Shown one piece after another: positions 5,668-46,927 of a DNA stretch of 64,000 bases. The position numbers and the translations under genes are program-made. This stretch comes from Alphaproteobacteria bacterium (GTDB lineage Bacteria; Pseudomonadota; Alphaproteobacteria; MPNO01), in assembly GCA_964291675.2 (NCBI GenBank), contig OZ219865.1, positions 640,001 to 704,000 of the forward strand, read 5' to 3'. The notes under the pieces were generated by a model that had not been told where the DNA came from, did not search any database, and saw only the letters and a program-made list of their open reading frames with translations. Numbering within the stretch: position 1 is the first letter of the stretch; each line of letters starts with the position of its first letter.

Positions 5668-7290
5668 TCACGACCCCCGCCCGGGCGGGACGATGTGCTC
5701 GGCGAGGCGCCTGCCGGTGGCGACGAGCTCGGGGACGACGAAGGACGCACCGGCGCGGACCAGCTCGGCGGCATGCGCATCGTTCGCCGCACGGGCGAGG
5801 ACCGTGAGTTCGGGCAGCATTCCCCGCAGGATTCCAACCAGCCGGGTCGCGGCTTCGGAGTCGCTGAGCGCGACGACCACGGTGCGCGCGGTCGGAAGAT
5901 GAAGCTGTTCCAGGATCTCCGGCCGGCTCGCATCGCCGAAATAGACCCGTTCCCCCTGCGCGCGGGCGGTGGAGACGACCAGCGGGTCGCGGTCGAGCGC
6001 GATGAAGGATATGCCCTTGTCGGAGAGCTCGCGCGCCACCGTGCGGCCGACCCGGCCATAGCCCGCGATCACCACGTGATTTATCAGCGTCACCTCGTCC
6101 TCGTCGATTTCCCCGACGCGGGCCGAGCTCCGCACGGCCGTCCAGTGCATCAGCCGGGCGCTCGCCCAGGCGAGCAGCGGCGTCGCCATCATCGAGAGCG
6201 CCACCGCGATGATCAGCGCCTGGCCGAGCCCCTCCTCGATCAGCCCGCCCAGCATGGCGGCGCTGAAGACGACGAAGCCGAACTCGCCGCCCTGCGCCAG
6301 CAGCAGCCCGAGCGGCAGCGCATAGAGCCCCGGCAGGCGGAACAGCAGCACCAGGGGAACCAGGACCAGCGCCTTGAGCGCGATCAGCCCGGCGGCGATG
6401 CCGAGCACCAGCGAGAACTGCGCGTAGGCGAGGTCGAGATTGGTCTGCATGCCGATCGACATGAAGAACAGCCCGAGCAGCAGGGCGCGGAACGGCCGGA
6501 TCTCGGCCGAGACCTGGTGGCGGTACTCGGTCTCGGCCAGCACCATGCCGGCGAGCAGCCCGCCGATGGCGAGCGAGAGCCCGGCATATTCGGTGAAGGC
6601 GGCGACTCCGAGGACGACCAGCAGGCTCGCCGCCGCGAAGATCTCGTCGCTCTTCTCCGCCGCGACGATGGCGAACAGCGGCCGCAGGACGAAACGCCCC
6701 AGCACGACGATCGTCACCAGCGCGACGGCGGCTTCCAGCCCGGCGAGGCCGAGCGAGGCGACAAGCCCGCCCTCCCGGTTGGTGAGCACCAGGGTCATCA
6801 CCAGGATGGGCGCCACGGCGAGGTCCTGCATCAGCAGCACCGTGAACGCGGCGCGGCCGAAGCGGGTCGCGATCTGGCGCCTGTCCAGCAGGATCTGGAT
6901 GACGAACACGGTGGACGACAGAGCGAGGGCCGCGCCGATCACGATGGCCGCGTCCAGCGAGACCCCGCAGGCGACGGCAATACCGGCAATCGCCGCGCCG
7001 GTGACCAGGATCTGCGCCAGCCCGAGGCCGAACATCGACGGCGACAGCACCTTGATCCGCTCCAGCGGCAGCTCGAGCCCGATGGTGAACAGCAGGAACA
7101 CCACGCCGAACTCGGCGAAGGAGCGGATGGTCTCGATGTCGGCGACGAAGCCGAGCCCGAACGGGCCGATGACGATGCCGGCGACGAGATAGCCGAGCAC
7201 GGGGGAGAGCCGCAGACGCCTGAGCGCGAACAGAGCGGCGACGGATGCGGCCAGGATGACGATCACATCGGCAAGGTCGATGTGCGGCAT
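5668..7290 (-). CDS. CPA2 cation:proton antiporter with TrkA-N domain (KefB/KefC-like)
   Basis: GVVFLLFTIGLEL, ALSST, LLMQDL, QGGEFGFV, C-terminal GYGRVG. Confidence 0.92.
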   Translation of the reverse strand: MPHIDLADVIVILAASVAALFALRRLRLSPVLGYLVAGIVIGPFGLGFVADIETIRSFAEFGVVFLLFTIGLELPLERIKVLSPSMFGLGLAQILVTGAAIAGIAVACGVSLDAAIVIGAALALSSTVFVIQILLDRRQIATRFGRAAFTVLLMQDLAVAPILVMTLVLTNREGGLVASLGLAGLEAAVALVTIVVLGRFVLRPLFAIVAAEKSDEIFAAASLLVVLGVAAFTEYAGLSLAIGGLLAGMVLAETEYRHQVSAEIRPFRALLLGLFFMSIGMQTNLDLAYAQFSLVLGIAAGLIALKALVLVPLVLLFRLPGLYALPLGLLLAQGGEFGFVVFSAAMLGGLIEEGLGQALIIAVALSMMATPLLAWASARLMHWTAVRSSARVGEIDEDEVTLINHVVIAGYGRVGRTVARELSDKGISFIALDRDPLVVSTARAQGERVYFGDASRPEILEQLHLPTARTVVVALSDSEAATRLVGILRGMLPELTVLARAANDAHAAELVRAGASFVVPELVATGRRLAEHIVPPGRGS

Positions 7291-7417
7291 TCGCGGTCTC
7301 CAGCGCGCGGTGCGTCCCTAGAGTAGCGCCGATCCCGGCGAATCGCGCCGTGCGCGTTCGCCCGGCCGATCCGATTGCTGTAGTCTCCGGGCTCCCGCGT
7401 CTACCGCCCCCGGCCCC

Positions 7418-8659
7418 ATGCTTGTCCGAACGATCCGAGAGAACCCATACGGCTGGCTGGTCGTCGCCGTCCTGTTCCTGGTTCTCAGCCTGGTCATGGG
7501 GGCACGCTCCTCGCTCGGGCTGCTGATACCCGAGTGGGAGACGGAGTTCGCCTGGGACCGGACGTTCATCTCGACCGGCGGCTCGGTGATGCTCACGGTC
7601 ATGGCGGTCGGATCGCCCATCGCCGGCATGGCGCTCGACCGCTATGGCGGCCGCACGATCTACGTGTTCGCCATCCTGCTAACCGCGCTCGGCGTCTGCC
7701 TGACGGCCGGGATGTGGCAGGGCTGGCACTTCATCGCGGCGTTCGGGCTGATCGCCGGCATCGGCTTCTCGGCGATCTCGGCGCCGCTGATCGGCACCAC
7801 GGTGGCGCTCTATTTCGACGCGCGGCGCGGGCTCGCGACGGGAATCGCAACGTCGGGCGCGACCGGCGGCCAGCTCGTGCTGATGCCCCTGCTCGCCGTC
7901 GGTCTCGCCGCCATCGGCTGGCGCGCCAGCTTCCTCGCCATGGGGGTCCTGCTGGTCGCGATCGCCCTGCTCGCCTGGGTGCTGATCCGCCGCGAGGCGC
8001 CGGCGCGCCGCATGCGCGGCTTCCAGGCCGAGGCCGGCAACACGGTCTGGACGCAGCTCGGCTACCTGATGCGCGATCGCACCTTCTGGCTGCTCGGCAT
8101 CGGCTACATCGTGTGCGGCTTCACCACCATCGGCGCGATCAGGATCCACTTCCTGCCCTACGCGGCGGCCTGCGGCTTTCCGGTCCTGGAGAGCGCGTCC
8201 GCGTTCGGCGTTCTGATGGCGACCTCGGCGGCGGGGATCATCGGCTTCGGCGCGGCGGCCGACAAGTTCCACCGCCCCGCGCTGCTCGCCTCGATCTACT
8301 TCCTGCGCGCGCTCTGCTTCATCCTGCTGATGTTCATCCCGGGCGATTCGGTGCTGCTGTTCACCTTCGCCGCCCTGTTCGGGCTGTTCGACTTCGCGAC
8401 CTTCCCGGTGGTCGCCAATATCGTCGGCACGCATATGGGGCTCCGCATCATGGGGCTGACCATGGGGCTCCTGTTCTCGCTGCACTCGGTCGGCGGCGCG
8501 CTCGGCTCGTTCGCCGGCGGCTGGCTGTTCGACCTGTTCGCCCAGTACGACTGGATGTGGCTCGCCTCCTTCGGGCTCGCGCTGCTGGCCGCCTTCCTGT
8601 CGATCCTGGTGCATGAGCCGCACCGGACCGGCTTCGTCCGGGTGCCGGCGCCCGCCTGA
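7418..8659 (+). CDS. MFS transporter
   Basis: About 12 hydrophobic segments; GMALDRYGGR MFS motif A. Confidence 0.88.
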   Translation: MLVRTIRENPYGWLVVAVLFLVLSLVMGARSSLGLLIPEWETEFAWDRTFISTGGSVMLTVMAVGSPIAGMALDRYGGRTIYVFAILLTALGVCLTAGMWQGWHFIAAFGLIAGIGFSAISAPLIGTTVALYFDARRGLATGIATSGATGGQLVLMPLLAVGLAAIGWRASFLAMGVLLVAIALLAWVLIRREAPARRMRGFQAEAGNTVWTQLGYLMRDRTFWLLGIGYIVCGFTTIGAIRIHFLPYAAACGFPVLESASAFGVLMATSAAGIIGFGAAADKFHRPALLASIYFLRALCFILLMFIPGDSVLLFTFAALFGLFDFATFPVVANIVGTHMGLRIMGLTMGLLFSLHSVGGALGSFAGGWLFDLFAQYDWMWLASFGLALLAAFLSILVHEPHRTGFVRVPAPA

Positions 8660-8677
8660 CGCCGTGGGAGGCGACCG

Positions 8678-9925
8678 ATGACCGTCATCCAGGGCCTGCT
8701 CGGTCTCGCCGCCCTCGTCGGGCTGGCCTGGCTGGTCAGCGAGAACCGGGCACGGCTTCCCTGGCGGACCGTCCTCGTCGGCATCGCGATCCAGTTCGCG
8801 CTGGCGCTGGTCCTGCTCGAATGGGAGGTGGGTTGGCAGATCCTGCTCGCGCTCAACGGCGTCGTGGAGGCGCTCCAGGCGGCGACCCGCGCCGGCACCT
8901 CCTTCGTGTTCGGCTATCTCGGAGGCGGGGCGCTGCCCTTCGAGGAGAAGTCGCCCGGCGGCGCCTTCGTCTTCGCCTTCCAGGCCCTGCCGCTGGTGCT
9001 GGTGGTGAGCGCGCTGTCGGCGCTGCTCTATCACTGGCGGGTGCTGCCGGCGGTGGTCGGCGCCTTCGCCTGGGCGCTCGCGCGCCTGCTCCGGCTCGGC
9101 GGCGCGGCGAGCTTCTCGACCGCCGCCAACATATTCGTCGGCATGGTGGAGTCGCCGCTCCTGATCCGCCCCTATCTCGCCGCGCTCAGCCGGAGCGAGC
9201 TGTTCGTGGTGATGACCGCCGGGATGGCGACGATCGCCGGCACGGTCATGGTGCTCTACGCAACCGCGCTCGCCGACGTGATCGCCAACCCGGTCGGCCA
9301 TTTGCTGACCGCCTCGCTCCTGAGCGCGCCGGCCGCGGTGTCGATCGCCCGGGTGATGGTGCCGGAGGATGGCGGGACCGCGGGCGGGTCTGTGATCCCG
9401 GAACGGCTCTACGAGTCGAGCGTGGACGCGCTCACCCGCGGCACGCTCGACGGGCTCACCCTGCTGCTCAACATAGTCGCCAGCCTGATCGTCGTCGTCG
9501 CGCTGGTGCATCTCGCGAACCTGCTTCTCGGGCTCCTGCCCGACCTCGCCGGCGCGCCGATCACCCTGGAACGGCTGCTGGGCTACGCGCTGGCGCCGGT
9601 CGCCTGGCTGATGGGGATCCCGTGGAGCGAAGCCGTCGCCGCCGGCTCGCTGCTCGGCATCAAGGTGGTGCTCAACGAGCTGATCGCCTATTTCACCCTG
9701 GCCGGGCTGCCGGACGGCGCGCTCGGCGAGCGCAGCCGGCTGATCATGACCTACGCGCTCTGCGGCTTCGCCAACTTCGCGAGCCTCGGCATCCTGATCG
9801 CCGGGCTCGGGGCGATGATGCCGGAGCGCCGCACGGAGATCCTGGGCCTCGGCCTCAAGTCGATCGTCGCCGGCACGCTTGCCGCCTGCATGACCGGCAC
9901 GGTGATCGGCCTCTTAACGCTCTGA
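8678..9925 (+). CDS. concentrative nucleoside transporter (NupC/CNT family)
   Basis: FAFQALP, ANIFVGMVESPL, GMATIAG, LCGFANFASLGI. Confidence 0.93.
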   Translation: MTVIQGLLGLAALVGLAWLVSENRARLPWRTVLVGIAIQFALALVLLEWEVGWQILLALNGVVEALQAATRAGTSFVFGYLGGGALPFEEKSPGGAFVFAFQALPLVLVVSALSALLYHWRVLPAVVGAFAWALARLLRLGGAASFSTAANIFVGMVESPLLIRPYLAALSRSELFVVMTAGMATIAGTVMVLYATALADVIANPVGHLLTASLLSAPAAVSIARVMVPEDGGTAGGSVIPERLYESSVDALTRGTLDGLTLLLNIVASLIVVVALVHLANLLLGLLPDLAGAPITLERLLGYALAPVAWLMGIPWSEAVAAGSLLGIKVVLNELIAYFTLAGLPDGALGERSRLIMTYALCGFANFASLGILIAGLGAMMPERRTEILGLGLKSIVAGTLAACMTGTVIGLLTL

Positions 9926-11419
9926 CAGGTACCGCCGTTCCAGATGCGCCTTGAAGGCGCCGGTGCCGAGCGGCGCGCCGGTCGCCTCTTGAAGCAGCTC
10001 GTCGGTGCTCGCCGGCAGCGACGCCTTGCGGTGGACGTTTTCTCCCAGCCAGCCGAACAGCGGCGCGAAATCGCCCCCGGCGATCGCCTGCGGGATCCCG
10101 GGGCATGCGTCGAGCGCGGCGGCGAAGAGCTGCGCGGCGGCGAGCGCGCCCAGCGCATAGGTCGGGAAGTAGCCCCAGCTCCCGCCGTACCAGTGGATGT
10201 CCTGGAGGCAGCCCGCGGCATCGTCGGGCGGGCGGATGCCGAGCAGGGATTCGAGCCCGTCGGCCCAGGCATCCGGCAGGTCGTCGAGCGACAGCTCGCC
10301 GCCGATGAGCCGCCGTTCCAGCCGGTAGCGCAGGATCACATGCGCCGGGTAGGTCACCTCGTCGGCGTCGACCCGGATCAGGCTGCGGGCGACCCGGCGG
10401 TAATGGCGGCGCAGATTGGCGGGCGACCATGCCGGTCCTTCCCCGCCGAAGGCCTCGCGCAGCAGCGGCGCGAGAAAGGCGATGAACTCGGCCGAGCGGC
10501 AGGCCTGCATCTCGACGATCAGGGACTGGCTCTCATGCACCGCCATGCCGCGCGCCGAGCCGGCCGGCTGGTGGCGCCAGTCGCGCGGCAGCCCCTTGTT
10601 GTAGAGCGCGTGCCCGGTCTCGTGCAGGACGGCCATGACGCTCTGGGTGAAATCCGCCGTGTCGTAGCGCGTCGTCACCCGGACGTCGTCGTGGACCCCG
10701 CTGCAGAACGGGTGCAGGCTGACATCGAGGCGCCCGCCGTCGAAGTCGAAGCCGAGCTGTCTCATCAGCCGCTCGCCGAGCGCGTGCTGCACCTCGACCG
10801 CGAACGGACCCTCCATCGGCAAAGGCGGCGCCTCGCGCGCCTGCGCCTCCAGCACGCGGTCGAGAAATCCCGGCAGGAAGGCGGCGAGGTCGGCGAACAG
10901 CGCGTCGATCCGCTCGGTCCGCGCGCCCGGCTCGTACACGTCGATCAGCGCGTCGTAGGCCGGACAGCCGAGCGCCGCGCCGCGGGCCTGGCCGGCCTCG
11001 CGCACCAGATCGAGCACGGTTTGCAGAAAGGGTTTGACGGCGGGGTAGTCGGCCCTCGGCCTGGCCTCGCGCCACGCCATTTCGCATTCGCTGTCCGCCG
11101 TGGTCATCGCCGCGATCAGACCGGCGTCGAGCGCCGTCGCGTGCAGCCATCTGCGGCGCATCTCGCGCAGATTGGCGGCGCGCCACGCATCGCCCGCCAC
11201 CTCCTCCGCGGCCCCGTCGAGCAGGTTCGGCACGGTCGGGTCGGTGATCTTCTCATGCTCGACCAGGCGCAGCGCGGCGAGCTGTTCGGCGCGGGCGGGC
11301 GCGCCCCTGGGCGGCATGTTCACCGAGCGGTCCCAGGCCAGCATGCGCGCCGCCTCCCGCAATGCGCCGATCTGCGCGAAGCGTTCTTCCAGCGCCTCGT
11401 AGCTGCTAGCCCCGGCCAT
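9914..11419 (-). CDS. carboxypeptidase Taq (M32 family)
   Basis: HPF, HETGHALY, HESQS, IRVDAD, GCLQDIHW, GYFPTYALG; start MAGASSY (11419). Confidence 0.95.
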   Translation of the reverse strand: MAGASSYEALEERFAQIGALREAARMLAWDRSVNMPPRGAPARAEQLAALRLVEHEKITDPTVPNLLDGAAEEVAGDAWRAANLREMRRRWLHATALDAGLIAAMTTADSECEMAWREARPRADYPAVKPFLQTVLDLVREAGQARGAALGCPAYDALIDVYEPGARTERIDALFADLAAFLPGFLDRVLEAQAREAPPLPMEGPFAVEVQHALGERLMRQLGFDFDGGRLDVSLHPFCSGVHDDVRVTTRYDTADFTQSVMAVLHETGHALYNKGLPRDWRHQPAGSARGMAVHESQSLIVEMQACRSAEFIAFLAPLLREAFGGEGPAWSPANLRRHYRRVARSLIRVDADEVTYPAHVILRYRLERRLIGGELSLDDLPDAWADGLESLLGIRPPDDAAGCLQDIHWYGGSWGYFPTYALGALAAAQLFAAALDACPGIPQAIAGGDFAPLFGWLGENVHRKASLPASTDELLQEATGAPLGTGAFKAHLERRYLSER

Positions 11420-35787: not shown

Positions 35788-35864
35788 TGGCGCGCCCGGC
35801 AGGATTCGAACCTGCGACCTGCGGATTAGAAGTCCGCTGCTCTATCCGGCTGAGCTACGGGCGC
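35788..35864 (-). tRNA. tRNA-Arg (anticodon TCT)
   Basis: GCGCCCGTAGCTCAGCCGGATAGAGCAGCGGACTTCTAATCCGCAGGTCGCAGGTTCGAATCCTGCCGGGCGCGCCA; cloverleaf, TTCGAA T-loop, CCA end. Confidence 0.97.
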
Positions 35865-37361: not shown

Positions 37362-37438
37362 TGGTCGGGGCGGCAGGATTCGAACCTGCGACCCCCTGCT
37401 CCCAAAGCAGGTGCGCTACCAGGCTGCGCCACGCCCCG
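37362..37438 (-). tRNA. tRNA-Pro (anticodon TGG)
   Basis: CGGGGCGTGGCGCAGCCTGGTAGCGCACCTGCTTTGGGAGCAGGGGGTCGCAGGTTCGAATCCTGCCGCCCCGACCA. Confidence 0.97.
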
Positions 37439-38564: not shown

Positions 38565-39170
38565 CTATCCGCCGCGCGCCCGGGAGAGCGGCTTGGCCCC
38601 CCGGAAGCCCAGCCTGGGCCCTTGCCGGTCGGGGCGGTGGAGCGCGTCCACGCGCTGCATCGAGGCCCAGGCCCGGTCGCGTGCGGCATAGTAGTCGGCG
38701 TTGGCGTCGATCATCCATCCGGCCTCTTCGGCGTCGATCCCGCGCAGCACCCGGGCCGGAACGCCGGCGGCGATGGTCCGTTCCGGGACCTCGAACTCGG
38801 CGCGGACGAAGGCGAGCGCAGCCACGATCGCCTGGGCGCCGACCACCGCCCCGTCCATCACCACCGCGTTCATGCCGATCAGCGCCCGGTCGCCCACCGA
38901 GCAGCCGTGCAGCACCGCGCCATGGCCGACCGAGACATCGGCGCCCACCACCGTCTCTCCGCCGGCGAAGCAGTGGACCGTGCAGTTGTCCTGGATGTTG
39001 GAGCCCTCGCCCAGCCGGATCTGGCCGAAATCGCCCCGGAGACTCGCCGAGGGCGCGATATAGCAGCCCGGCCCGACGATCACGTCGCCGATCAGGACCG
39101 CCGTCTCATGGACATAGGCCGTGGGGTGGACGACGGGGATCACCCCGTCGATGGCATAGACCCTGGGCAT
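38565..39170 (-). CDS. gamma-carbonic anhydrase family hexapeptide protein (PaaY/CaiE-like)
   Basis: VYAIDG..PVVHPTAYVH.TAVLIGDV, LRGDFG, NIQDNC..H, GHGAVLHGC. Confidence 0.9.
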   Translation of the reverse strand: MPRVYAIDGVIPVVHPTAYVHETAVLIGDVIVGPGCYIAPSASLRGDFGQIRLGEGSNIQDNCTVHCFAGGETVVGADVSVGHGAVLHGCSVGDRALIGMNAVVMDGAVVGAQAIVAALAFVRAEFEVPERTIAAGVPARVLRGIDAEEAGWMIDANADYYAARDRAWASMQRVDALHRPDRQGPRLGFRGAKPLSRARGG

Positions 39171-39208
39171 TCAGACGTGTTGATGCAACGGGTACAAACG
39201 TGGGTACA
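39171..39208. repeat. att junction (paaY side): core TCAGACGTG plus tandem GGGTACA arm-like sites
   Basis: Core 39171-39179; GGGTACA at 39190-39196 and 39202-39208 (12-bp period). Confidence 0.8.
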
Positions 39209-39402
39209 TCAGCAATTCCGCGAGTTGGGCATTCAGCTATTCGGCGCCAAAGGCACGCGAGCATTCAGGGTTTTGGAGCGTCTTCCGAGCGCAGCAAAGC
39301 ACAGTGCCGATCACGCCGCAACCGAGCCCGAGCCGGGCCGCCTGGTGTCCTGATGCGGACCCGCCGAGCCGCCGGGGCGATAGGCATTTTGAACGCGCGG
39401 CA

Positions 39403-39888
39403 TCAGCGGGCAGCGGTGGGCGCTCGATATCGACAATCGAGCAAGTCACAACATCCCGACGCCAGTTTTTCGACGCCACTCGGCGGCATTGTCCAGCCTG
39501 TCATCCCGCGTAGCGCGATTTCGGCGGTTCGGTATATCGCCCGTCGCGGACACTCTTCGGCCTTCACCCCATCGACGGGCAGCGCGGGCTTGTGGCTGGG
39601 TGTCGTCCCTCCGCCGCGCGGTGCTGACGGCGTGCCGACGTTCGGATCGAAAAGCGCGTAGCCCGTCGCGAACGTGTAGCCGCGCCAGATGTTGACGTGA
39701 AGGACGCCGCACCATCGCGGCTCGCCCGCGTCCGCCTTCGGCACGCATCGTATCGACTTCAACACGCCGCGCCTGGCCGCCTGGTGGGCCGGAGTCTCGT
39801 CGCGCGCGATCCTATAGTCCGCGCCGAAGAACTCGCGAAGTTCCAGCCGTGCCGCTTCGGCTGCCCGTTCCAATCGCGCGTTGGCCAT
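39403..39888 (-). CDS. hypothetical protein (distal satellite gene)
   Basis: MANARLERAAEAARLELREFFG...; GAGGA RBS before ATG 39888; no family recognised. Confidence 0.55.
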   Translation of the reverse strand: MANARLERAAEAARLELREFFGADYRIARDETPAHQAARRGVLKSIRCVPKADAGEPRWCGVLHVNIWRGYTFATGYALFDPNVGTPSAPRGGGTTPSHKPALPVDGVKAEECPRRAIYRTAEIALRGMTGWTMPPSGVEKLASGCCDLLDCRYRAPTAAR

Positions 39889-40142
39889 CGTCCTCAGTCC
39901 TTTGCGTTGTGTCCGAGCGTTGCTGTCGAGATCGTCGCGCGGGGCGCGCTTTTCAAATGCAAATTCGCAGCGTGTTGCAGCGCCAATTGTTGATGCGATG
40001 AATTGTTGATCAGTCACCCAACCCGGGCCTCTTTCCGAGGCTCGCAGAAAAAATTGCACTGGGCCATGCGATGCTGGAACCGCGGCCGAGGCGGCGCGGG
40101 TCCCCTTTCCGGCTGCGGCGCCGGGCTCGCGCGCGTCGGCCA

Positions 40143-40200
40143 GCGGAGATCGCGATGGGCGGAGATCGCGATGGGCGGAGATCGAGCCGAGCGGAGAACG
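40143..40200 (+). repeat. 16-bp tandem repeats (iteron-like)
   Basis: GCGGAGATCGCGATGG x2 perfect, then GCGGAGATCGAGCCGA and GCGGAGAACG. Confidence 0.8.
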
Positions 40201-40317
40201 AATGAGACGCCGCGCCGATCTCTCTTTCATTGGGGGTACTCACTACTACCTCCTATACCAATACCCACTTTCATTGAAAGTATAGATAGACCCTCTCATT
40301 CTCTCGCGACAAGACTA

Positions 40318-40848
40318 TCAGCGCAGCGGCCACGGCTCCGCGGCAAAGCCCACACTGGCCGGGACGCGCGTATACCATTCGCCCCATGCATCGGCCGCGC
40401 GCTCTTTGGCGACTGGTTCGGGCGGCTCGATGCCGTGAAGCGCAACGACTTGCGCGGCGATGCGCTGCCCGTCGATGTCGGTCACGCCGCCAACGCCCTT
40501 CGCGATATCCGCGAGCTGGACGAATTCGCCCGCCAGATTTCGCAACATGCCGTCCGCTTGCCGCGCATGTCGGCGCCAAGCGTCATCTACAGCCCAGGGA
40601 TTGACCGTTTCATCGCGCGCGCCGTCCGGGCGCATCGCGACAATGCCATCGGCGAACATGCGCAACAGGACGCGCCGCACTTCTCTATGGTCGCGCTCGC
40701 CCGTCGTTTCGACGATCCACGGCGTAGCAACGCCAACGTCCGGTGCTTCCGCGCTCGCAAGCGCCAACGCTACGCCCGTTCGCACTCGGCCTGTTCGTGC
40801 TATTGGATCGGCGACAATCGGCCGCCATAGTGTCGCGCGTCGCGCCAT
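40318..40848 (-). CDS. hypothetical protein with possible winged-HTH (candidate replication/DNA-binding protein)
   Basis: VATPWIVETTGERDHREVRRVLLRMFADGIV resembles a wHTH; GGGGGAG RBS before ATG 40848 (alternative TTG 40866). Confidence 0.5.
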   Translation of the reverse strand: MARRATLWRPIVADPIARTGRVRTGVALALASAEAPDVGVATPWIVETTGERDHREVRRVLLRMFADGIVAMRPDGARDETVNPWAVDDAWRRHARQADGMLRNLAGEFVQLADIAKGVGGVTDIDGQRIAAQVVALHGIEPPEPVAKERAADAWGEWYTRVPASVGFAAEPWPLR

Positions 40849-40862
40849 AGCCGGTCTCCCCC

Positions 40863-41162
40863 TCAACGCTTGGTTCGGTCGATCCGCACAATCGCCCCCG
40901 CCGCTTCAAGCCGAGCGAACAAACGGTCGATCATCGCCCGCCGCCCGCGGTCCCGCGCAACCTGGCGCGTCAGCCAAAGCAAGTCGAGCCACGCCGCGGC
41001 GTCAGCTTGGTCGCCGTGTTCGTTGATATGCCGGATGGCAGCGATGAACCTGTCGACCATCTTGCGTCGTTTGAGCCGGGCGAGCTTCATGGCAGCCCGC
41101 TGGATTTCAGCGGCAGTCGGCTGCTCGCCCGTCGCGTCGCAATAGCTCCATTGGTCAGGCAT
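40863..41162 (-). CDS. hypothetical helical protein (satellite)
   Basis: MPDQWSYCD...IVRIDRTKR; AAGGGG RBS; adjacent to the downstream ORF. Confidence 0.55.
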   Translation of the reverse strand: MPDQWSYCDATGEQPTAAEIQRAAMKLARLKRRKMVDRFIAAIRHINEHGDQADAAAWLDLLWLTRQVARDRGRRAMIDRLFARLEAAGAIVRIDRTKR

Positions 41163-41284
41163 CAGACCGCCCCTTGTGGACGCCCAGGGAGCCCGTACAG
41201 CGCCATAGCGGTATTCTCGGCTACCCGATGCACCCCCGCCCCTCGCATGGACGCCGTACGCGCTCCGCAGCGCCATCGTTTCGC

Positions 41285-41608
41285 CTACGCCTCGATGCCG
41301 AGCGCCCGCATTGCGTCGCGCCAGCGTTTCGGCACCGACTTCCGAGGAGCCCCGCCGCCATCGAGGAACAGCCCGACGCGCTCGACGGTGTGCGGGCCGT
41401 CCGGCAAGTCGTCGGCCTCGATCCAGCGCCACGCATTCCCGCGCTGGATCGCAACGCCGAGGACGGTCCGACGATCCGGGCCTTCGTATCCGCAGACGAC
41501 CGCCGAGCGCCCGCGGACGAGATGGGCGGCGACGAACTCGGCCTCGCCTTGAGCCCGCGCACGGTGCGCCCGCGTCCGCCGTCTGGCCGCTTTCCTGTCG
41601 CCGCTCAT
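41285..41608 (-). CDS. hypothetical protein (satellite), translationally coupled to portal
   Basis: ATGA overlap with portal stop; 107 aa, basic N-terminus. Confidence 0.6.
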   Translation of the reverse strand: MSGDRKAARRRTRAHRARAQGEAEFVAAHLVRGRSAVVCGYEGPDRRTVLGVAIQRGNAWRWIEADDLPDGPHTVERVGLFLDGGGAPRKSVPKRWRDAMRALGIEA

Positions 41609-42594
41609 TGGTCAAGTCCCGCGAGCCGCGCCGCGTCCTCGTTCGAAAACCCCGCCTGAACCAGCCGGTTCGCCGCCTGCGACCGCAGCGCCGCAGCGCG
41701 GGCAAGGTCGAGATGGCTTGCCGGTATCCACGCGTCGCGGTTGAGCCGGATTTCGGTTTCGAGCTTGGCGCTCGCTTCGACCTCGACCATGGACGCCAGC
41801 GGGTTGAACGTCCGCACGATTGCGAGCCGCCACGCCGCGGGCCCGCTGTCTCGGCCCGTCAATGGCTGCAACAGTCCGGTGATGCCGAACGCAGCCTCGA
41901 TGTCGTTGCGGACTTGCTCCCGCAGCGCCACGAGGCCCGCGCTCGGCTCGGGTCCGTAGTGCTGGCCGTGCTCGGCGCCTGGCGGCATGACTACCAGTCC
42001 GCTTCTCGCGAGCGCCGCGCCGAACGTCGCGGCGATCTGGTCGCGAACTTCCTTCCCGGCGCGCGCCATCTGTTCGCCCATGTTGATCGCATGGCCGGGC
42101 GGGATGGATGCCTCCGTTGCCGCCGCAGCGTCCACCACGACAGCGAGCGACGCGGCGCTATCGCCAGCGCCGATCGGAGCCCCGCCCGCGAGGACCAGAT
42201 GGACAACGCCGCCGTCCTCGGTGTCATGCTTCGCCGTGTTGCCGTCCGGCAGCGTGACGGAGCCCGTCCACTGGTCGCCCTTGCGCGTCGCGGCGTAGGG
42301 CAAGAGCGTTGCGGCCTCGCCTTCAAGCATGATGGCGAGCGTCGCCTTGCCGCGAAGCCCGAGTTGCCGTCCGGCCCAGTAGAGGACTTCGCCGGTCAAC
42401 GGAGCACCCGGCGTCGCGGCGGCCAGCGCCCAGCCCCATGTCCGGACGGCCGCGCCGATCAGCGTGACTTGCTCATGGCCCGGCAGCGATCCGCCGTCGA
42501 GCGTGAGCGCCCCGCCGGCCGCCAAGTCGGTTTCGGATTTCGTCCGCGTGACCCATGGCACGGCCGCGAGTAGCGCATTGAGACCCCAGCGCAT
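41605..42594 (-). CDS. divergent HK97-type phage portal protein
   Basis: IGAAVR..G.ALA, L.LRGKA, VVHL, DIEAAFGI..LL, TFNPL...VE.E...KL, LV.AG.S..DA.RLAGL follow the HK97 portal pattern; TGATG coupling with protease. Confidence 0.65.
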   Translation of the reverse strand: MRWGLNALLAAVPWVTRTKSETDLAAGGALTLDGGSLPGHEQVTLIGAAVRTWGWALAAATPGAPLTGEVLYWAGRQLGLRGKATLAIMLEGEAATLLPYAATRKGDQWTGSVTLPDGNTAKHDTEDGGVVHLVLAGGAPIGAGDSAASLAVVVDAAAATEASIPPGHAINMGEQMARAGKEVRDQIAATFGAALARSGLVVMPPGAEHGQHYGPEPSAGLVALREQVRNDIEAAFGITGLLQPLTGRDSGPAAWRLAIVRTFNPLASMVEVEASAKLETEIRLNRDAWIPASHLDLARAAALRSQAANRLVQAGFSNEDAARLAGLDQ

Positions 42595-43082
42595 CAGTAG
42601 AGCCACGGCGACGGCGCCGTGTCCTCGTCGGCCGAGCGCGCCGCGACGGTCGCGTCCGGGTAGGCGCCGGTGTCGACGACCGCGACGCCGAACAGCTCGG
42701 CCTTCTCGATCACGCGGACCCCCGCCTCGCGGCGTTCGGACAACGCGCGAAACTCGACGGACAACCCGCGCAATATTCCCGCCTCGACCAGCGCAATCGT
42801 GTCGTCGGCGTCGCGCGTGTTGGGCAAGGTCGCCTCTATCGCGAGCGAGGCCGCACTGTCGCGCAATTCGAGCCCGCCGCCGCCCGTCCGCGCCAGTGGT
42901 CGCGCACGATCATGGTGGGCGTTCAGGATCACGTCGCCTTTCGGAATGAGGCTGCCGGGCTCGAAGCGTTCCCGCTGGCCGTTCTTGACGCCGCCGGCGC
43001 CGTATTTCATCGCCACGCCCGTCAGCTTGCGGCCGTCGAGCGTGACGCCATCGGCGTATCGCCGTTCGATTGTCTGTGTCAT
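42594..43082 (-). CDS. HK97-family prohead protease
   Basis: LTGVAMKYG, ERFEPG, LNAHHD..RPLART, GLSVEF (catalytic Ser), ELFGVAVVD.GAYPDATV. Confidence 0.9.
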   Translation of the reverse strand: MTQTIERRYADGVTLDGRKLTGVAMKYGAGGVKNGQRERFEPGSLIPKGDVILNAHHDRARPLARTGGGGLELRDSAASLAIEATLPNTRDADDTIALVEAGILRGLSVEFRALSERREAGVRVIEKAELFGVAVVDTGAYPDATVAARSADEDTAPSPWLY

Positions 43083-43210
43083 GTCGAATTTCCCGTTTCG
43101 TATGGACCTGGGGAGGCCGCAGAGCGTCCATCGTCGAGGCGCAAGTGTCTCGGTAGCCCGCGAAACGACCATGGCGCTCTGCGGCGTTCCCTGTGGCTGC
43201 TGCGCGGCCG

Positions 43211-44407
43211 CTACTGGTGCTGGGCTTGGACCCTGACGAAGCCGTCGCTACGCAACACGTCCCATGCCGCCAGCATGATCGCCGTGAGCTTGACCTCGCC
43301 CGTGCCGACCGCCGAAACGCGGTCCTCGACCAGCTCGACGTTCTCCCACACGGCCGCCGCGAAATCCTGGTTTCCACCCTTCCGAATGAGAACGTCCTGC
43401 TTGTTCGCCGCCGTGTCCGGAATGTTCGCCGACACGCGGAGCCCGCCGACCAGCGCCCGCACGGCCGCGACGGACGAAGCGTCCGAATTGTTGGTGCGGT
43501 AGAGCGCCGCCCAATCCGTCAACGTGTCGGCGCCCACCATGATCCGGAGCGCCGCCTCGTCGGCCGCATAGGTCCCGTCGACGTTCGGATAGACGAACCG
43601 CGAAAAGACGGTCGCGAACGTGTCGGCCGCATTGGCTGCCGTGCGGTTCACGTCGGCGACGATCTGCGCCACGACTTGCGCATCGAAGGCAGCGCCCAGC
43701 GCCTCGCGGAGCGCTTCGCGGAGACCGGTATCGAGGCCGGCGAACCGCGCCGCGTCCGTGCGCCGATAGCGGAAACCGGCCTGGACGCGCTCGGGCGGCA
43801 GCGAGTAGAGCGCGATCACGCCGTTCGTCTCGGTCGCGTCGGTGCTATCGGTGAACGGTCCCTTGACGCTCGGATCGCTGGTCAGTACGGGATAGCCCGC
43901 CGTCCCGACTTCGACGATTTCGGGCGCGATGCCGAAGAACGCCGCATCGCCGGTCGCGAACGGGCCATAGATCAACGGACGCTCGGCGACGGATACGCTG
44001 GCAGGAACCGTGGTTGCCGCGCGCGTCTCGACGGCCAGCGCGCGGATGCTGAACTGACCGTCGGGGATGTTCCGCTCGGCGTTGTATTCGGCGGTCGGGC
44101 CGTCGAGGCTTCGACGCTCGCCCGTCACCATTGCGGCGACGGCGCCAAGGTCATACCCCGCCACCAGCGCGTCGGCCTCGCGCTGTTCGGCGGAACGCTG
44201 GTCGTTGGGGAGCTTGTCCAGCTCGCCGTCGATCCGGTCCAGCTCGCCGTTGATGGCCACGTGGCGATCCTCGATTTCGCGCTGGCGCTCAGGCTTGGGA
44301 GCGTCGGCCCGCGCCAGCTCGATGCGCTCGTTCTGGAGCGACCGCTGTTCGCGCTCCAGCTTCTTGCGCTCCATCTTCAGGCGATGGCGCTGTTGTGCGG
44401 TTGTCAT
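43211..44407 (-). CDS. HK97-fold major capsid protein with N-terminal coiled-coil (delta-domain-like) segment
   Basis: 398 aa; charged coiled-coil N-terminus, YPV...P, L.PER..A......TD, L...LR..L....D..V, C-terminal VEDR..A.TGEVKLTA...D..V.R..GF; adjacent to protease and portal. Confidence 0.8.
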   Translation of the reverse strand: MTTAQQRHRLKMERKKLEREQRSLQNERIELARADAPKPERQREIEDRHVAINGELDRIDGELDKLPNDQRSAEQREADALVAGYDLGAVAAMVTGERRSLDGPTAEYNAERNIPDGQFSIRALAVETRAATTVPASVSVAERPLIYGPFATGDAAFFGIAPEIVEVGTAGYPVLTSDPSVKGPFTDSTDATETNGVIALYSLPPERVQAGFRYRRTDAARFAGLDTGLREALREALGAAFDAQVVAQIVADVNRTAANAADTFATVFSRFVYPNVDGTYAADEAALRIMVGADTLTDWAALYRTNNSDASSVAAVRALVGGLRVSANIPDTAANKQDVLIRKGGNQDFAAAVWENVELVEDRVSAVGTGEVKLTAIMLAAWDVLRSDGFVRVQAQHQ

Positions 44408-44601
44408 GCGTAGTCCCTTCATCTGGCGGTCGCTGCGGCCACGGCCACGGGCTCGGCCGAATAGACTTCGCCCGCGTGGTGGCGCCGCATGTTGCCGCAG
44501 CGACCAGAGATGAAAGAACGCGACGCCACCCGTCCGCGAGTGGGAGGACGATCCCGCCGCAGTCGCTTCGAGTGGTGCTATTCGTTGAGCGGGGGGATTG
44601 C

Positions 44602-45174
44602 TCAGATACCGAGAGACGCTATCGCGTCGCGCGCGATGTCTCGGTCAGCGTGCCAAATGCCCTCAACGGTCTTGTAGTTGAGACCATACTTGATCGCCAC
44701 GTTGTCACAGTGGCTTTCCCCGGCGATGGCACGCCCGCCCCGGTTCTTGTCAACGCGGCGTGTTGTGCGGAGGTTGGGATTTGATCGCTGGCTACGCACG
44801 ATGTCCTTCAGGATTTCGAGGTCGCGGTCCAGCTTCGGCGCTTGACCGGGCGGCCGCTTCGCGCCGTCCAGTCGCTCCAAAATCCACTCGCGGAACTGGC
44901 GCGGCAGCGGTGCTATGTCCTGCCGCAACAGCCAAGGCGTCAATGCCGCGAGTTGATCCCAAGCGAGACGGTGCTTGCGCGCCTTGACAACGAGCCCCGC
45001 GACGCGCCCGTTGAACAACAGAGGTTGCTCGCGCCCGAGTGTTTCCAGCACGCCAGCGTGGAGCTCCGCCCATTGGGCCGGCGATCGGAGGACCTCGGAG
45101 GCAATCCCCGCGAACGCGAAATCAACCTCGTCCGGATCGTCGGGCATGTAGTAGCTTGTAGGCGTATCGGTCAC
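44602..45174 (-). CDS. hypothetical protein, possible C-terminal HTH regulator
   Basis: GTG start with GGAGG RBS; C-terminal ESHCDNVAIKYGLNYKTVEGIW is HTH-like; immediately downstream of the integrase. Confidence 0.55.
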   Translation of the reverse strand: MTDTPTSYYMPDDPDEVDFAFAGIASEVLRSPAQWAELHAGVLETLGREQPLLFNGRVAGLVVKARKHRLAWDQLAALTPWLLRQDIAPLPRQFREWILERLDGAKRPPGQAPKLDRDLEILKDIVRSQRSNPNLRTTRRVDKNRGGRAIAGESHCDNVAIKYGLNYKTVEGIWHADRDIARDAIASLGI

Positions 45175-45253
45175 GGCGGGCCTCCGAGCGGCGGCGCAAC
45201 ATTGAGCGCTCCGCAAGCTGCTGTCTCCTGCAAATCGCAGCCCCTCGCAGCCG

Positions 45254-46513
45254 TCAGCCGGTCAGGAACTCCGCCCAGTCCGCCATGACTTCGCGGCGGC
45301 GCTCCAGCATGGTCGTCCGCATGTAGGCTTGCACCGTAGCGTTGCCGTTGGCGTGAGCGAGACAGGCTTCGGCGACCTCGAACGCGACGCCGGTCTCGGC
45401 CGCCCAATCGCGAAACGTCGAACGCCATCCGTGCGGAACGGCCTCGTCGGTGACGGCTCGCAGCGCACCCACCATGTACGATGTCGGTCTCCCACGCGCT
45501 CCGATCCGCGGGAACAGCAAGCGTCCGCCGTCGAGGCGCGGCGCCACGATGGACACGGCCGCGTCCGACAGCGGCGCGACGTGTTCCCGCCCCGTCTTCA
45601 TGCGTTCGCCGGGGATCGTCCACCGGAGCGTCTTCAAATCGAATTCGGCTTGCTCGGCCTTCGCCGCTTCGATGGGCCGAACGGCGGTCAGCGCCTGCAG
45701 GCGTACAGCCGCCCCGGCCTCGGTATCCGGCAGCGCGGCAAACACGGCCGGCGCATCCTCCCCGCGCAACGCGGCGTGATGCTTTTCGGCGGGCAGCTTC
45801 GGCAACAGCTTTGCGAGCGCCCGCCCCGTCGCCACGTTGTCCTCAAGGTGTTCGGCCGCAATCGCCCAGTCCAGTACGCTGCAAATATTGCTCCGGAGCT
45901 GGATCGCGGTCCCCCGCCGTCCTTCGCGATGGTGCGGCTCCAACACGGCCGCCACGTCGCGGCGCTTGATCGCGTCAACAGGTATGTTCGCCAGTGGCGC
46001 CGCCCAGCGTTTCAGACGGGCGGCGGCCTCTTTGCGCGGGCGCTCCTTCCGTCCCGAGATGGCCAGCCATTCATCCGCCGCTTCGGCGAAGGTCGGAGCA
46101 TCGCCGGGGCGCGACGGCTCGGGATCGTCCGCCTCGAAATTGACGCCCGCCGGCGTATGAGCGTTGAGGATCGCCGCGACGATCCGCTCCTTGTCGCTGA
46201 GGTCCATACGCTCCGCGGCCGTCATCGCCGCGTCTACGGCGGGCCGCGCTCGGGCAAGGCCTCGCTCAATCTGGGCGGCTTGGTACGTCGCCGCCGCCTG
46301 TTCGCGCGCGGCGTCAAGATCGTCGAGCTTGCCGAGGCTGCGATCTACGCGCTTGCCGTCGCGGTCGGGATAGCGAAGGCGGAGATACCAAGTGCGACTT
46401 CCCGCCTTCGTCTTGCGAACCACGAGCTGGAGCCCGTTCGCGTCATCCTGATCGGCGCCGTCCCAGTAGGTGCCAGGGGGCGCGGTTTCGAGCGCTTCGG
46501 CTGTGAATTTCAT
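45254..46513 (-). CDS. P4-like tyrosine integrase
   Basis: N-terminal arm-binding domain (GLQLVV...G.RTW.LR...G...LG....L..ARE.A); catalytic R (TAVRPIE), K (MKTG), HGWR, LAH, Y (QAYMR) all intact. Confidence 0.95.
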   Translation of the reverse strand: MKFTAEALETAPPGTYWDGADQDDANGLQLVVRKTKAGSRTWYLRLRYPDRDGKRVDRSLGKLDDLDAAREQAAATYQAAQIERGLARARPAVDAAMTAAERMDLSDKERIVAAILNAHTPAGVNFEADDPEPSRPGDAPTFAEAADEWLAISGRKERPRKEAAARLKRWAAPLANIPVDAIKRRDVAAVLEPHHREGRRGTAIQLRSNICSVLDWAIAAEHLEDNVATGRALAKLLPKLPAEKHHAALRGEDAPAVFAALPDTEAGAAVRLQALTAVRPIEAAKAEQAEFDLKTLRWTIPGERMKTGREHVAPLSDAAVSIVAPRLDGGRLLFPRIGARGRPTSYMVGALRAVTDEAVPHGWRSTFRDWAAETGVAFEVAEACLAHANGNATVQAYMRTTMLERRREVMADWAEFLTG

Positions 46514-46564
46514 GGCCGCATCTCCGCTTCGCGTTGTCGCTGCGGAGACAGTAGCGGGGAGGCG

Positions 46565-46600
46565 TGTACCCAGTCAAGTACCCAAAGACCATCAGACGTG
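46565..46600. repeat. att junction (sufA side): tandem TGTACCC arm-like sites plus core TCAGACGTG
   Basis: TGTACCC 46565-46571 and AGTACCC 46577-46583 (12-bp period, inverted relative to the other end); core 46592-46600. Confidence 0.8.
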
Positions 46601-46927
46601 GAAGGATTCGCCGCAGCCGCAGCGCCCCTTCTCGTTCGGATTGTTGAACACGAAGCCGGATTGCAGCTTGTCCTCGACATAGTCCATCTCGGTGCCGACC
46701 AGGAACATCAGCGCCCTGCCGTCGATCAGCACGGTGACCCCCTTGTCCTCGACGATCTCGTCGAGCGGGTTCCTTTCGGCGGCGAACTCCATCTGGTAGG
46801 CCATGCCCGAGCAGCCGCCGGTGCGGACGCCGATGCGGAGCCCGACGGCCGGCTCATCGCGCCGCGCCATCAGGTGCCGAACGCGGTCGGCGGCGGCATC
46901 GGTCATGGTCATCGCCTGCTTGTTCAT
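46592..46927 (-). CDS. sufA: A-type Fe-S carrier protein SufA/IscA
   Basis: GGCSGM.Y, GTEMDY, FNNPN...CGCGESF. Confidence 0.95.
   Translation of the reverse strand: MNKQAMTMTDAAADRVRHLMARRDEPAVGLRIGVRTGGCSGMAYQMEFAAERNPLDEIVEDKGVTVLIDGRALMFLVGTEMDYVEDKLQSGFVFNNPNEKGRCGCGESFHV

Follow-up and report, generated by a model that had tools for sequence, protein, structure and literature searches.

A 7.4-kb integrated island of an alphaproteobacterium encodes an HK97-type capsid, prohead protease and portal and no recognisable terminase

The window analysed here, a 64,000-nucleotide stretch from an Alphaproteobacteria bacterium (contig OZ219865.1, positions 640,001 to 704,000 of the forward strand), contained a compact island at 39171-46600. 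All of its real genes lay on the minus strand. In the order of transcription they encoded an integrase, the open reading frame (ORF) orf204, a major capsid protein, a prohead protease, a portal, orf107, orf99/137, orf176 and, beyond a 430-bp gap, orf161. The island formed a 7,421-bp unit with a 9-bp duplication as its attachment (att) cores, and was flanked by sufA (46592-46927) and a hexapeptide-repeat gene (38565-39170). Its features, from the integrase end and in window coordinates (aa, amino acids), were:

46592..46600, attR core TCAGACGTG, forming the last codons and the stop of sufA
46566-46571 and 46578-46583, two GTACCC boxes about 9-26 bp inward of attR, the mirror of the left pair
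45254..46513, minus strand, tyrosine integrase of 419 aa (PF00589, 1.2e-10; PF22022, 6.3e-13; phrog_1, 7.3e-48)
44602..45216, minus strand, orf204, or 181 aa from ATG 45147; codon-position GC fits coding, and the nearest Atlas clusters are unnamed hypotheticals
43211..44422, minus strand, major capsid protein of 403 aa with the HK97 fold, from AlphaFold2, Foldseek and relatives
42594..43172, minus strand, HK97-family (S78) prohead serine protease, likely start ATG 43082 (PF04586, 3.2e-17)
41605..42606, minus strand, portal of 333 aa from GTG 42606 or 329 aa from ATG 42594, from fold and relatives
41285..41608, minus strand, orf107, third-position G+C 0.84; its start overlaps the portal stop as ATGA
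40863..41276, minus strand, orf99/137, start ATG 41162 or ATG 41276
40318..40848, minus strand, orf176, an orphan
40143..40200, a 16-bp unit, GCGGAGATCGCGATGG, repeated in tandem about 3.6 times within the 430 non-coding bp downstream of orf176
39403..39888, minus strand, orf161, likely start ATG 39888 after AAGGA/GAGGA; moderate codon-position GC
39190-39195 and 39202-39207, two GGGTAC boxes about 11-28 bp inward of attL, inverted relative to the right-end pair
39171..39179, attL core TCAGACGTG, directly 5′ of the ATG of the hexapeptide gene; the empty sites in loci L023-L032 read flank, core, flank

A first-pass annotation, made from the letters alone, had described an att-bounded element, and the TCAGACGTG repeats together with empty sites in congeners bore this out. 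In all 11 other species of the genus, sufA and the hexapeptide gene were adjacent and without the island. At the nucleotide level, the sufA stop was followed directly by the hexapeptide ATG in 10 of 10 same-genus loci (L023-L032), and the empty-site junction (GGGCAT, TCAGACGTG, GAAGGA) consisted of the flank left of attL, one core and the flank right of attR. For the eleventh congener (genome G410, locus L034) adjacency was judged from tblastn coordinates. The island was also missing from the closest congener, whose flanking protein was 96% identical, and is thus a recent arrival. The 9-mer occurred in three copies in the whole 4.8-Mb genome, both strands counted. The integrase gene began 79 bp inside attR and read inward, so that the island had an integrase near one end, direct repeats at both ends and an empty site in relatives, as a site-specific integrative element does. 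Comparison of the occupied and empty sites shows an insertion, by the predicted tyrosine integrase, through site-specific recombination at the 9-bp core at the very end of sufA, the stop of which was regenerated. The box pairs at the two ends of the island had matching spacing from the core and are candidate integrase binding sites. Two tRNA genes 1.7-3.4 kb off the island, tRNA-Arg(TCT) at 35788-35864 and tRNA-Pro(TGG) at 37362-37438, were considered and are not the attachment site.

Logan contigs of one sequencing run (X1) bridged attL without a difference. Contigs from a second study (X2) covered the island with 0 differences across 39593-45939, so the same island was present there. A 397-nt X2 contig that skipped 7,422 bp was rejected as an excision product; since it had 29 differences from the window, it is the empty site of another strain. 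In G410 the hexapeptide gene beside sufA was split: residues 2-183 and 149-201 matched about 2.6 kb apart, with an in-frame TAG (L034, G410:C1:4480319-4483867, and the other part at G410:C1:4479012-4479170). This suggests another insertion at or near the sufA/hexapeptide locus.

The capsid and portal proteins alone matched no family in the hidden Markov model libraries (Pfam, PHROGs, NCBIfam), and their identities came from predicted structures and from relatives. In the AlphaFold2 model of the capsid protein (pLDDT 83.9), residues 1-129 were mostly helical and were followed by an HK97-type body. The best Foldseek match was the capsid of RcGTA, the gene transfer agent of Rhodobacter capsulatus (6tb9, 5.4e-11), among at least 356 matches at E <= 1e-3 to phage capsids and encapsulins. 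A sequence search of the PDB with the capsid profile found only a designed helix bundle (E = 0.15). Capsid homologues numbered 107, and PF05065 was matched by 4 of the 28 that were aligned. Judged from the model, the helical N-terminal extension of about 120 aa may be a delta-domain-like scaffold. The portal model (pLDDT 85.9, pTM 0.75) matched the HK97 portal best (8cez, 1.4e-7), and all the listed matches were portal or neck entries. PF04860 was matched by 26 of the 36 aligned portal relatives, and the portal profile matched the RcGTA portal (6te8) at 7e-7. A word-indexed search had recovered a single non-self portal relative, against 108 matches by exhaustive HMMER. A complex prediction with two portal copies and orf107 scored 0.00, which carries no weight either way.

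The protease matched its Pfam family directly, and scored 55.3 bits against TIGR01543, just below the 59-bit cut-off. His57 and Ser108 (counted from the 43082 start), which we take to be the catalytic pair of the S78 family, were invariant in 7 of 7 aligned relatives (the window, L041, L003, L020, L018, L043 and L017). All of these proteases but that of L017 ended at, or at most one residue from, a conserved W-L or W-V. Those of L020 and L018 had a C-terminal extension of about 150 aa, missing in the window, L041, L003, L043 and L017. Since the folds, the family matches of the relatives and the direct protease match agree, the capsid, protease and portal identities given by the first-pass annotation are confirmed. 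The island thus holds an HK97-type head module, with an HK97-fold capsid, an S78 protease with its His and Ser residues and a portal of the 12-mer-type fold. Family matches and modelled folds together show that the three encoded proteins (a predicted scaffold-bearing capsid, an S78 protease and a portal) would suffice for an HK97-type prohead.

Third-position G+C was 0.80-0.85 in the integrase, capsid, protease, portal and orf107 genes (0.82-0.85 in the head genes), and the codon-position signal of the remaining ORFs was weaker, yet frame-consistent. The overlaps described earlier, TGATG between the protease stop and the portal ATG and ATGA between the portal stop and the orf107 ATG, were present. 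A promoter and terminator scan gave nothing beyond chance.

Searches of the island ORFs against Pfam, PHROGs and NCBIfam gave no match to a terminase, HNH, primase, tail, holin or lysin family. Queried by tblastn with the large terminase subunit (TerL) and HNH proteins of three relatives, the island gave nothing better than E = 0.5. The earlier claim of no recognisable terminase, tail or primase therefore stands. The largest unassigned ORF had 204 aa, so that none is long enough to be TerL. For the small subunit (TerS) there was no family match at E <= 1, and a very divergent TerS among the orphan ORFs is conceivable. Likewise, no AlpA, MerR or Stl regulator and no primase-replicase family was matched among the island ORFs.

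Where the first-pass annotation gave four unknown ORFs and a helix-turn-helix (HTH)-like regulator at 44602-45216, we counted five unassigned ORFs including the supposed regulator. The latter had no Pfam, PHROG or NCBIfam match at E <= 1 and only unnamed Atlas clusters near it, so the label is unsupported. None of the five matched a protein of the related loci (best blastp E 0.06) or anything elsewhere in the genome. The nearest named Atlas clusters of orf176 were DnaT, HTH_36, DnaB_2, Phage_rep_O and RepA_N (0.87-0.90, with few shared features), a weak lead towards a replication initiator. The tandem 16-bp repeats downstream are candidate origin iterons, or may be a packaging or operator site. 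The gap in which they lie is the only long non-coding gap of the island and its least G+C-rich part, and it also held two copies of AATTGTTGAT 16 bp apart (39985-40010).

Related loci were rare. The capsid profile matched 6 of the 401 sampled genomes of the class, the genome of the window included, and 4 of the 78 genomes of the order, all of these in the genus of the window. From the genome, viral and metagenome collections it recovered a single locus apiece. Eight distinct related loci were annotated, and L006-L009, L012-L014 and L019 were compared by tblastn only. The eight were:

L020/L015 (metagenome), about 9.5 kb: integrase, HTH_36, three small ORFs, TerL, HNH, capsid, protease, a 121-aa protein, portal
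L018 (genome G006): plan as L020/L015, with TerL and HNH
L042 (G410): plan as L020/L015, with TerL and HNH
L043 (G409): plan as L020/L015, with TerL and HNH
L017 (genome of the window): integrase, HTH, DUF3102, lambda-type portal, capsid, protease, gpA-type TerL
L016 (G006:C1:330000-349999), 7157-11111: a wreck, with HNH and capsid (PF05065, 2e-6) beside an McrBC fragment and a DDE transposase
L003 (Bryobacterales metagenome-assembled genome): capsid, protease, portal, with neither TerL nor HNH in the 1.4 kb upstream of them; the contig breaks off within the portal gene
L041 (G402, same genus as the window), 8,308 bp: capsid, protease, 321-aa portal, small ORFs, adaptor, inward-reading integrase

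The TerL- and HNH-bearing islands L020/L015, L018, L042 and L043 (about 9-10 kb) resembled the window element in having a tyrosine integrase and in their capsids (27-43% identity), proteases (42-58%) and the C-terminal part of the portal (33-34%). They come from the same class, and L042 and L043 from the same genus. In these islands, unlike the window element, the interval from the integrase to the capsid gene encoded TerL, HNH and proteins of the HTH_36 and DUF3102 families. Their portals fell in a separate clade and their integrases belonged to another lineage.

The deciding locus was L041. No TerL or HNH gene was found within its precise att boundaries. Its 8-bp core (ATCAACTG) was accompanied at both ends by mirrored TGGGAC-type boxes, including the inverted pair TGGGACTTGAATGGGACA / TGTCCCATGCAAGTCCCA, and at the orthologous loci of other genomes, empty in 8 of 8, its two flanks overlapped by exactly the core. 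The shared proteins of the two elements were 36-42% identical (portal 36.5%, integrase 42%), each aligning as one unbroken stretch. L041 additionally encoded a head-tail adaptor (phrog_442, 1.9e-11). As to the “P4-type” integrase of the first-pass annotation, the arm-binding domain PF13356 was matched weakly by the L041 orthologue (3.6e-4) and not by the window protein, so support for the designation is indirect.

In the portal tree (31 rows, omitting fragments below about 270 aa), the window portal, P0109 (60% identical to it) and L041 belonged to a 14-row clade with support of 100/100, and all four TerL-bearing elements together with L003 were placed in the other clade. In the capsid tree (23 rows, using 14 of the 107 capsid hits), the window, L041 and P0013 formed a clade (SH-aLRT 97) nested among relatives that included the TerL-bearing L020. 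As L041 also lacks TerL and HNH and is a clade-mate of the window element in both trees, the terminase-less state looks like the trait of a lineage and not a one-off deletion. The rest of the short-portal clade, 12 proteins (P0109-P0123 and P0218), were singletons on contigs of 3.6-556 kb, the lengths of which matched none of the contigs with capsid hits.

The same alpha/beta-hydrolase gene adjoined three islands in three species (L041 8663-9337, L017 2488-3213, and L042 upstream of 1378). L041 was inserted inside the 3′ end of the hydrolase gene, and the L017 and L042 islands started a few hundred bp beyond the start of the gene. An attachment site common to the three was rejected, as the L041 site was empty in G410 and in the genome of the window (G000).

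Possible partners were found in the same genome, outside the window. L017 is a second, larger island 84 kb upstream (G000:C1 ~591,500-601,100; L017 3511-13143). Its portal belonged to PF05136 (the lambda family), and its portal and terminase families differed from those of the other relatives. The second replicon carried a tailed prophage at G000:C2 ~3,003,000-3,022,000 (L057, L058), with genes for TerL (PF03237; phrog_2), a portal, a major head protein, a holin, a tail, a tail fibre and a repressor. Two transposase genes flanked this prophage. From its gene content it is one candidate helper, and the gpA-type TerL of L017 (C1:598.6-600.6 kb) is another possible motor source. A sister island is not required, since G402, which holds L041, had no second island of the same capsid family. 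The genome of the window contained only two S78 proteases, one per island. It holds no cluster resembling a gene transfer agent: PF04860, PF03354 and PF05065 found nothing in it. RcGTA-like agents have the order terminase, portal, protease, capsid and then tail genes, are inherited vertically and have neither integrase nor att sites. The island itself is not such an agent, which was rejected on the different gene order, the integrase and att sites, and the absence of the island from congeners.

[quoted passage not shown] The capsid-protease-portal order of the window island, which the first-pass annotation had likened to that of cf-PICIs, matched this description (bioRxiv 10.1101/2022.09.08.507074). 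The likeness extended to a chromosomal location, an integrase, an own capsid with an S78-type protease and a portal, the absence of tail and lysis genes, and a capsid family only distantly related to phage capsids. In contrast to cf-PICIs, the island had no TerL, TerS or HNH and no recognisable AlpA-type regulator, primase-replicase, head-tail adaptor or connector, was 7.4 kb long against the 15.4 kb of the prototype, and resides in Alphaproteobacteria. The SatelliteFinder cfPICI model, as published, comprises 11 core components and requires at least nine (PMC10085698). In the island 4 of the 11 were recognised (integrase, capsid, protease and portal), so that it falls outside that definition, although in forming a head it would act as a cf-PICI does.

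On balance we favour, with modest confidence, an integrated 7.4-kb satellite-like island on the cf-PICI plan, from a TerL- and HNH-less sub-lineage of a little-sampled alphaproteobacterial family of islands of about 7-10 kb. More tentatively, the window element and its counterpart may be minimal satellites with a third division of labour, which make their own prohead and hijack the terminase and tails of a helper. Induction by a helper phage would lead to excision and replication of the island, perhaps from the 16-bp iterons beside orf176. Small proheads encoded by the island would be assembled, and the helper would supply the packaging ATPase/nuclease, the tails and lysis. Its terminase would need to bind the island portal and to recognise a site in the island DNA. 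The first-pass annotation had already proposed a smaller alphaproteobacterial satellite class with a borrowed motor. The att-bounded prohead gene set without a motor agrees with part of that proposal; the regulator call is unsupported.

Several observations weigh against this interpretation. TerL was carried by 5 of the 8 annotated loci (L020/L015, L018, L042, L043 and L017). The first-pass annotation had held that a terminase in all close relatives would mark a deletion remnant, and the outcome of this check is mixed: L041, the clade-mate in both trees, lacks TerL, and those five loci have it. L016, which had neither protease nor portal, is an evident wreck of the same family. The capsid branches of the window and L041 were long (0.92 and 1.04, against a median of 0.28), which fits relaxed constraint or could have pulled the two together artificially. 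Long open frames arise by chance in DNA of 70% G+C, so the intact frames weigh less than they would otherwise. The distal 2.2 kb had a weaker coding signal. None of the five unassigned ORFs matched a Pfam or PHROG family at E <= 1, and a word-indexed search of 5.8 billion clusters found no relative of orf176 but itself among the 669 candidates scored. No head-tail adaptor or connector was recognised in the window element, and the promoter scan found no sigma-70-like promoter (0 against 0.8 expected). No excision product or circle was seen in the contigs of the sequencing runs, among which none was listed as holding RNA of the island. Of 400 other genomes sampled from the phylum, none had a member of the short-portal clade (E <= 1e-12, five candidates scored per genome), and single-protein scans of IMG/VR gave no relative of the short portal.

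The main alternative, which we consider unlikely although it is the strongest of the rivals, is that the island is the decaying remnant of a TerL- and HNH-bearing capsid-forming island. An internal deletion would have removed the packaging and regulatory genes and left head genes that are intact but useless, and the remnant would owe its persistence solely to an integrase and att sites that remain functional or are yet to decay. Most related loci carry TerL and L016 is a wreck, which shows that such wrecks exist, so the loss of TerL could be decay. In L020/L015, L018, L042 and L043 the space directly upstream of the capsid gene holds TerL and HNH; in the window element it holds orf204 alone. 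The long capsid branches of the window and L041 and the orphan state and weaker coding signal of the distal ORFs point the same way. However, no fragment of TerL or HNH was left, and deleting a block from L020 would not give the layout of the window element, in which the portal gene is followed by 2.4 kb with four ORFs, against about 0.4-0.7 kb in L020. L041 has diverged to 36-42% identity with its att sites still precise and none of the four shared genes broken, and is a clade-mate of the window element. The island is a recent arrival, being missing from the closest congener, and its catalytic and invariant residues are kept.

It is improbable, though compatible with a borrowed motor, that packaging specificity comes from non-canonical small proteins (TerS-like or Rpp-like) that re-aim the TerL of a helper at a site on the island. 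The five ORFs without an assignment measure 99-204 aa, and the tandem 16-bp repeat could be the recognition site. Classical PICIs are described as redirecting helper terminases with TerS and Rpp (PMC10690885). On the other hand, no terminase small-subunit family was matched at E <= 1, the five ORFs are not conserved in L041 or the other relatives, and the lead for orf176 points to replication. Such proteins would still need a helper TerL, and so would refine the satellite interpretation and not replace it. Finally, a non-transmissible defence or interference island, whose proheads or portal serve as decoys for the terminase or head-completion proteins of an invader, is very improbable: its gene set is head-only with no means of leaving the cell, and satellites are described as interfering with helper packaging (PMC10085698), but an integrase and precise att sites at two genomic positions in two species argue for a mobile life style. 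We know of no precedent for a decoy island.

Returning to the satellite interpretation, the island differs from the other small elements with which it was compared. The “twilight-zone” mini HK97-fold genomes are likewise below 11.6 kb, with an HK97-fold capsid, often an integrase, and no terminase or tail, and their possible life as satellites has been discussed (PMC13669383). According to the main text of that study, they have no portal, no protease is mentioned, and their capsids are enriched in encapsulin domains (PMC13669383), whereas the island has a portal, a protease and a phage-type N-terminal capsid extension. P4 and the cos-type pathogenicity islands of Staphylococcus aureus (SaPIs) are described as satellites packaged by the helper terminase via a site on the satellite (PMC10690885). 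Unlike the island, these use the capsid and portal of the helper and resize the shell; the island would be the reverse, borrowing the motor. The Streptomyces satellites MulchRoom and MiniFlayer differ in carrying both terminase subunits, as far as that account describes them (PMC10690885). In the main texts searched, supplements and subscription journals lying outside the search, no satellite with capsid, protease and portal and without a terminase was described. The island is probably a small phage parasite belonging to a type as yet unpublished.

P4, SaPIs and PLE (elements resembling phage-inducible chromosomal islands) take both the capsid and the motor of their helper, and cf-PICIs and the Streptomyces satellites bring both and take only tails. 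If the satellite interpretation is true, an element with a head and without a motor would be an intermediate between these two known satellite plans, and would raise the mechanistic question of how a heterologous terminase engages a satellite portal. Finders that demand TerL and at least nine of the 11 components would then miss part of satellite diversity. The island offers an HK97 prohead gene set, very small and self-contained, that is open to expression tests, and with two precisely bounded examples and a defined portal clade the idea can be tested directly. The elements, at 7.4-8.3 kb, would rank with the smallest known that encode an HK97 head with a portal.

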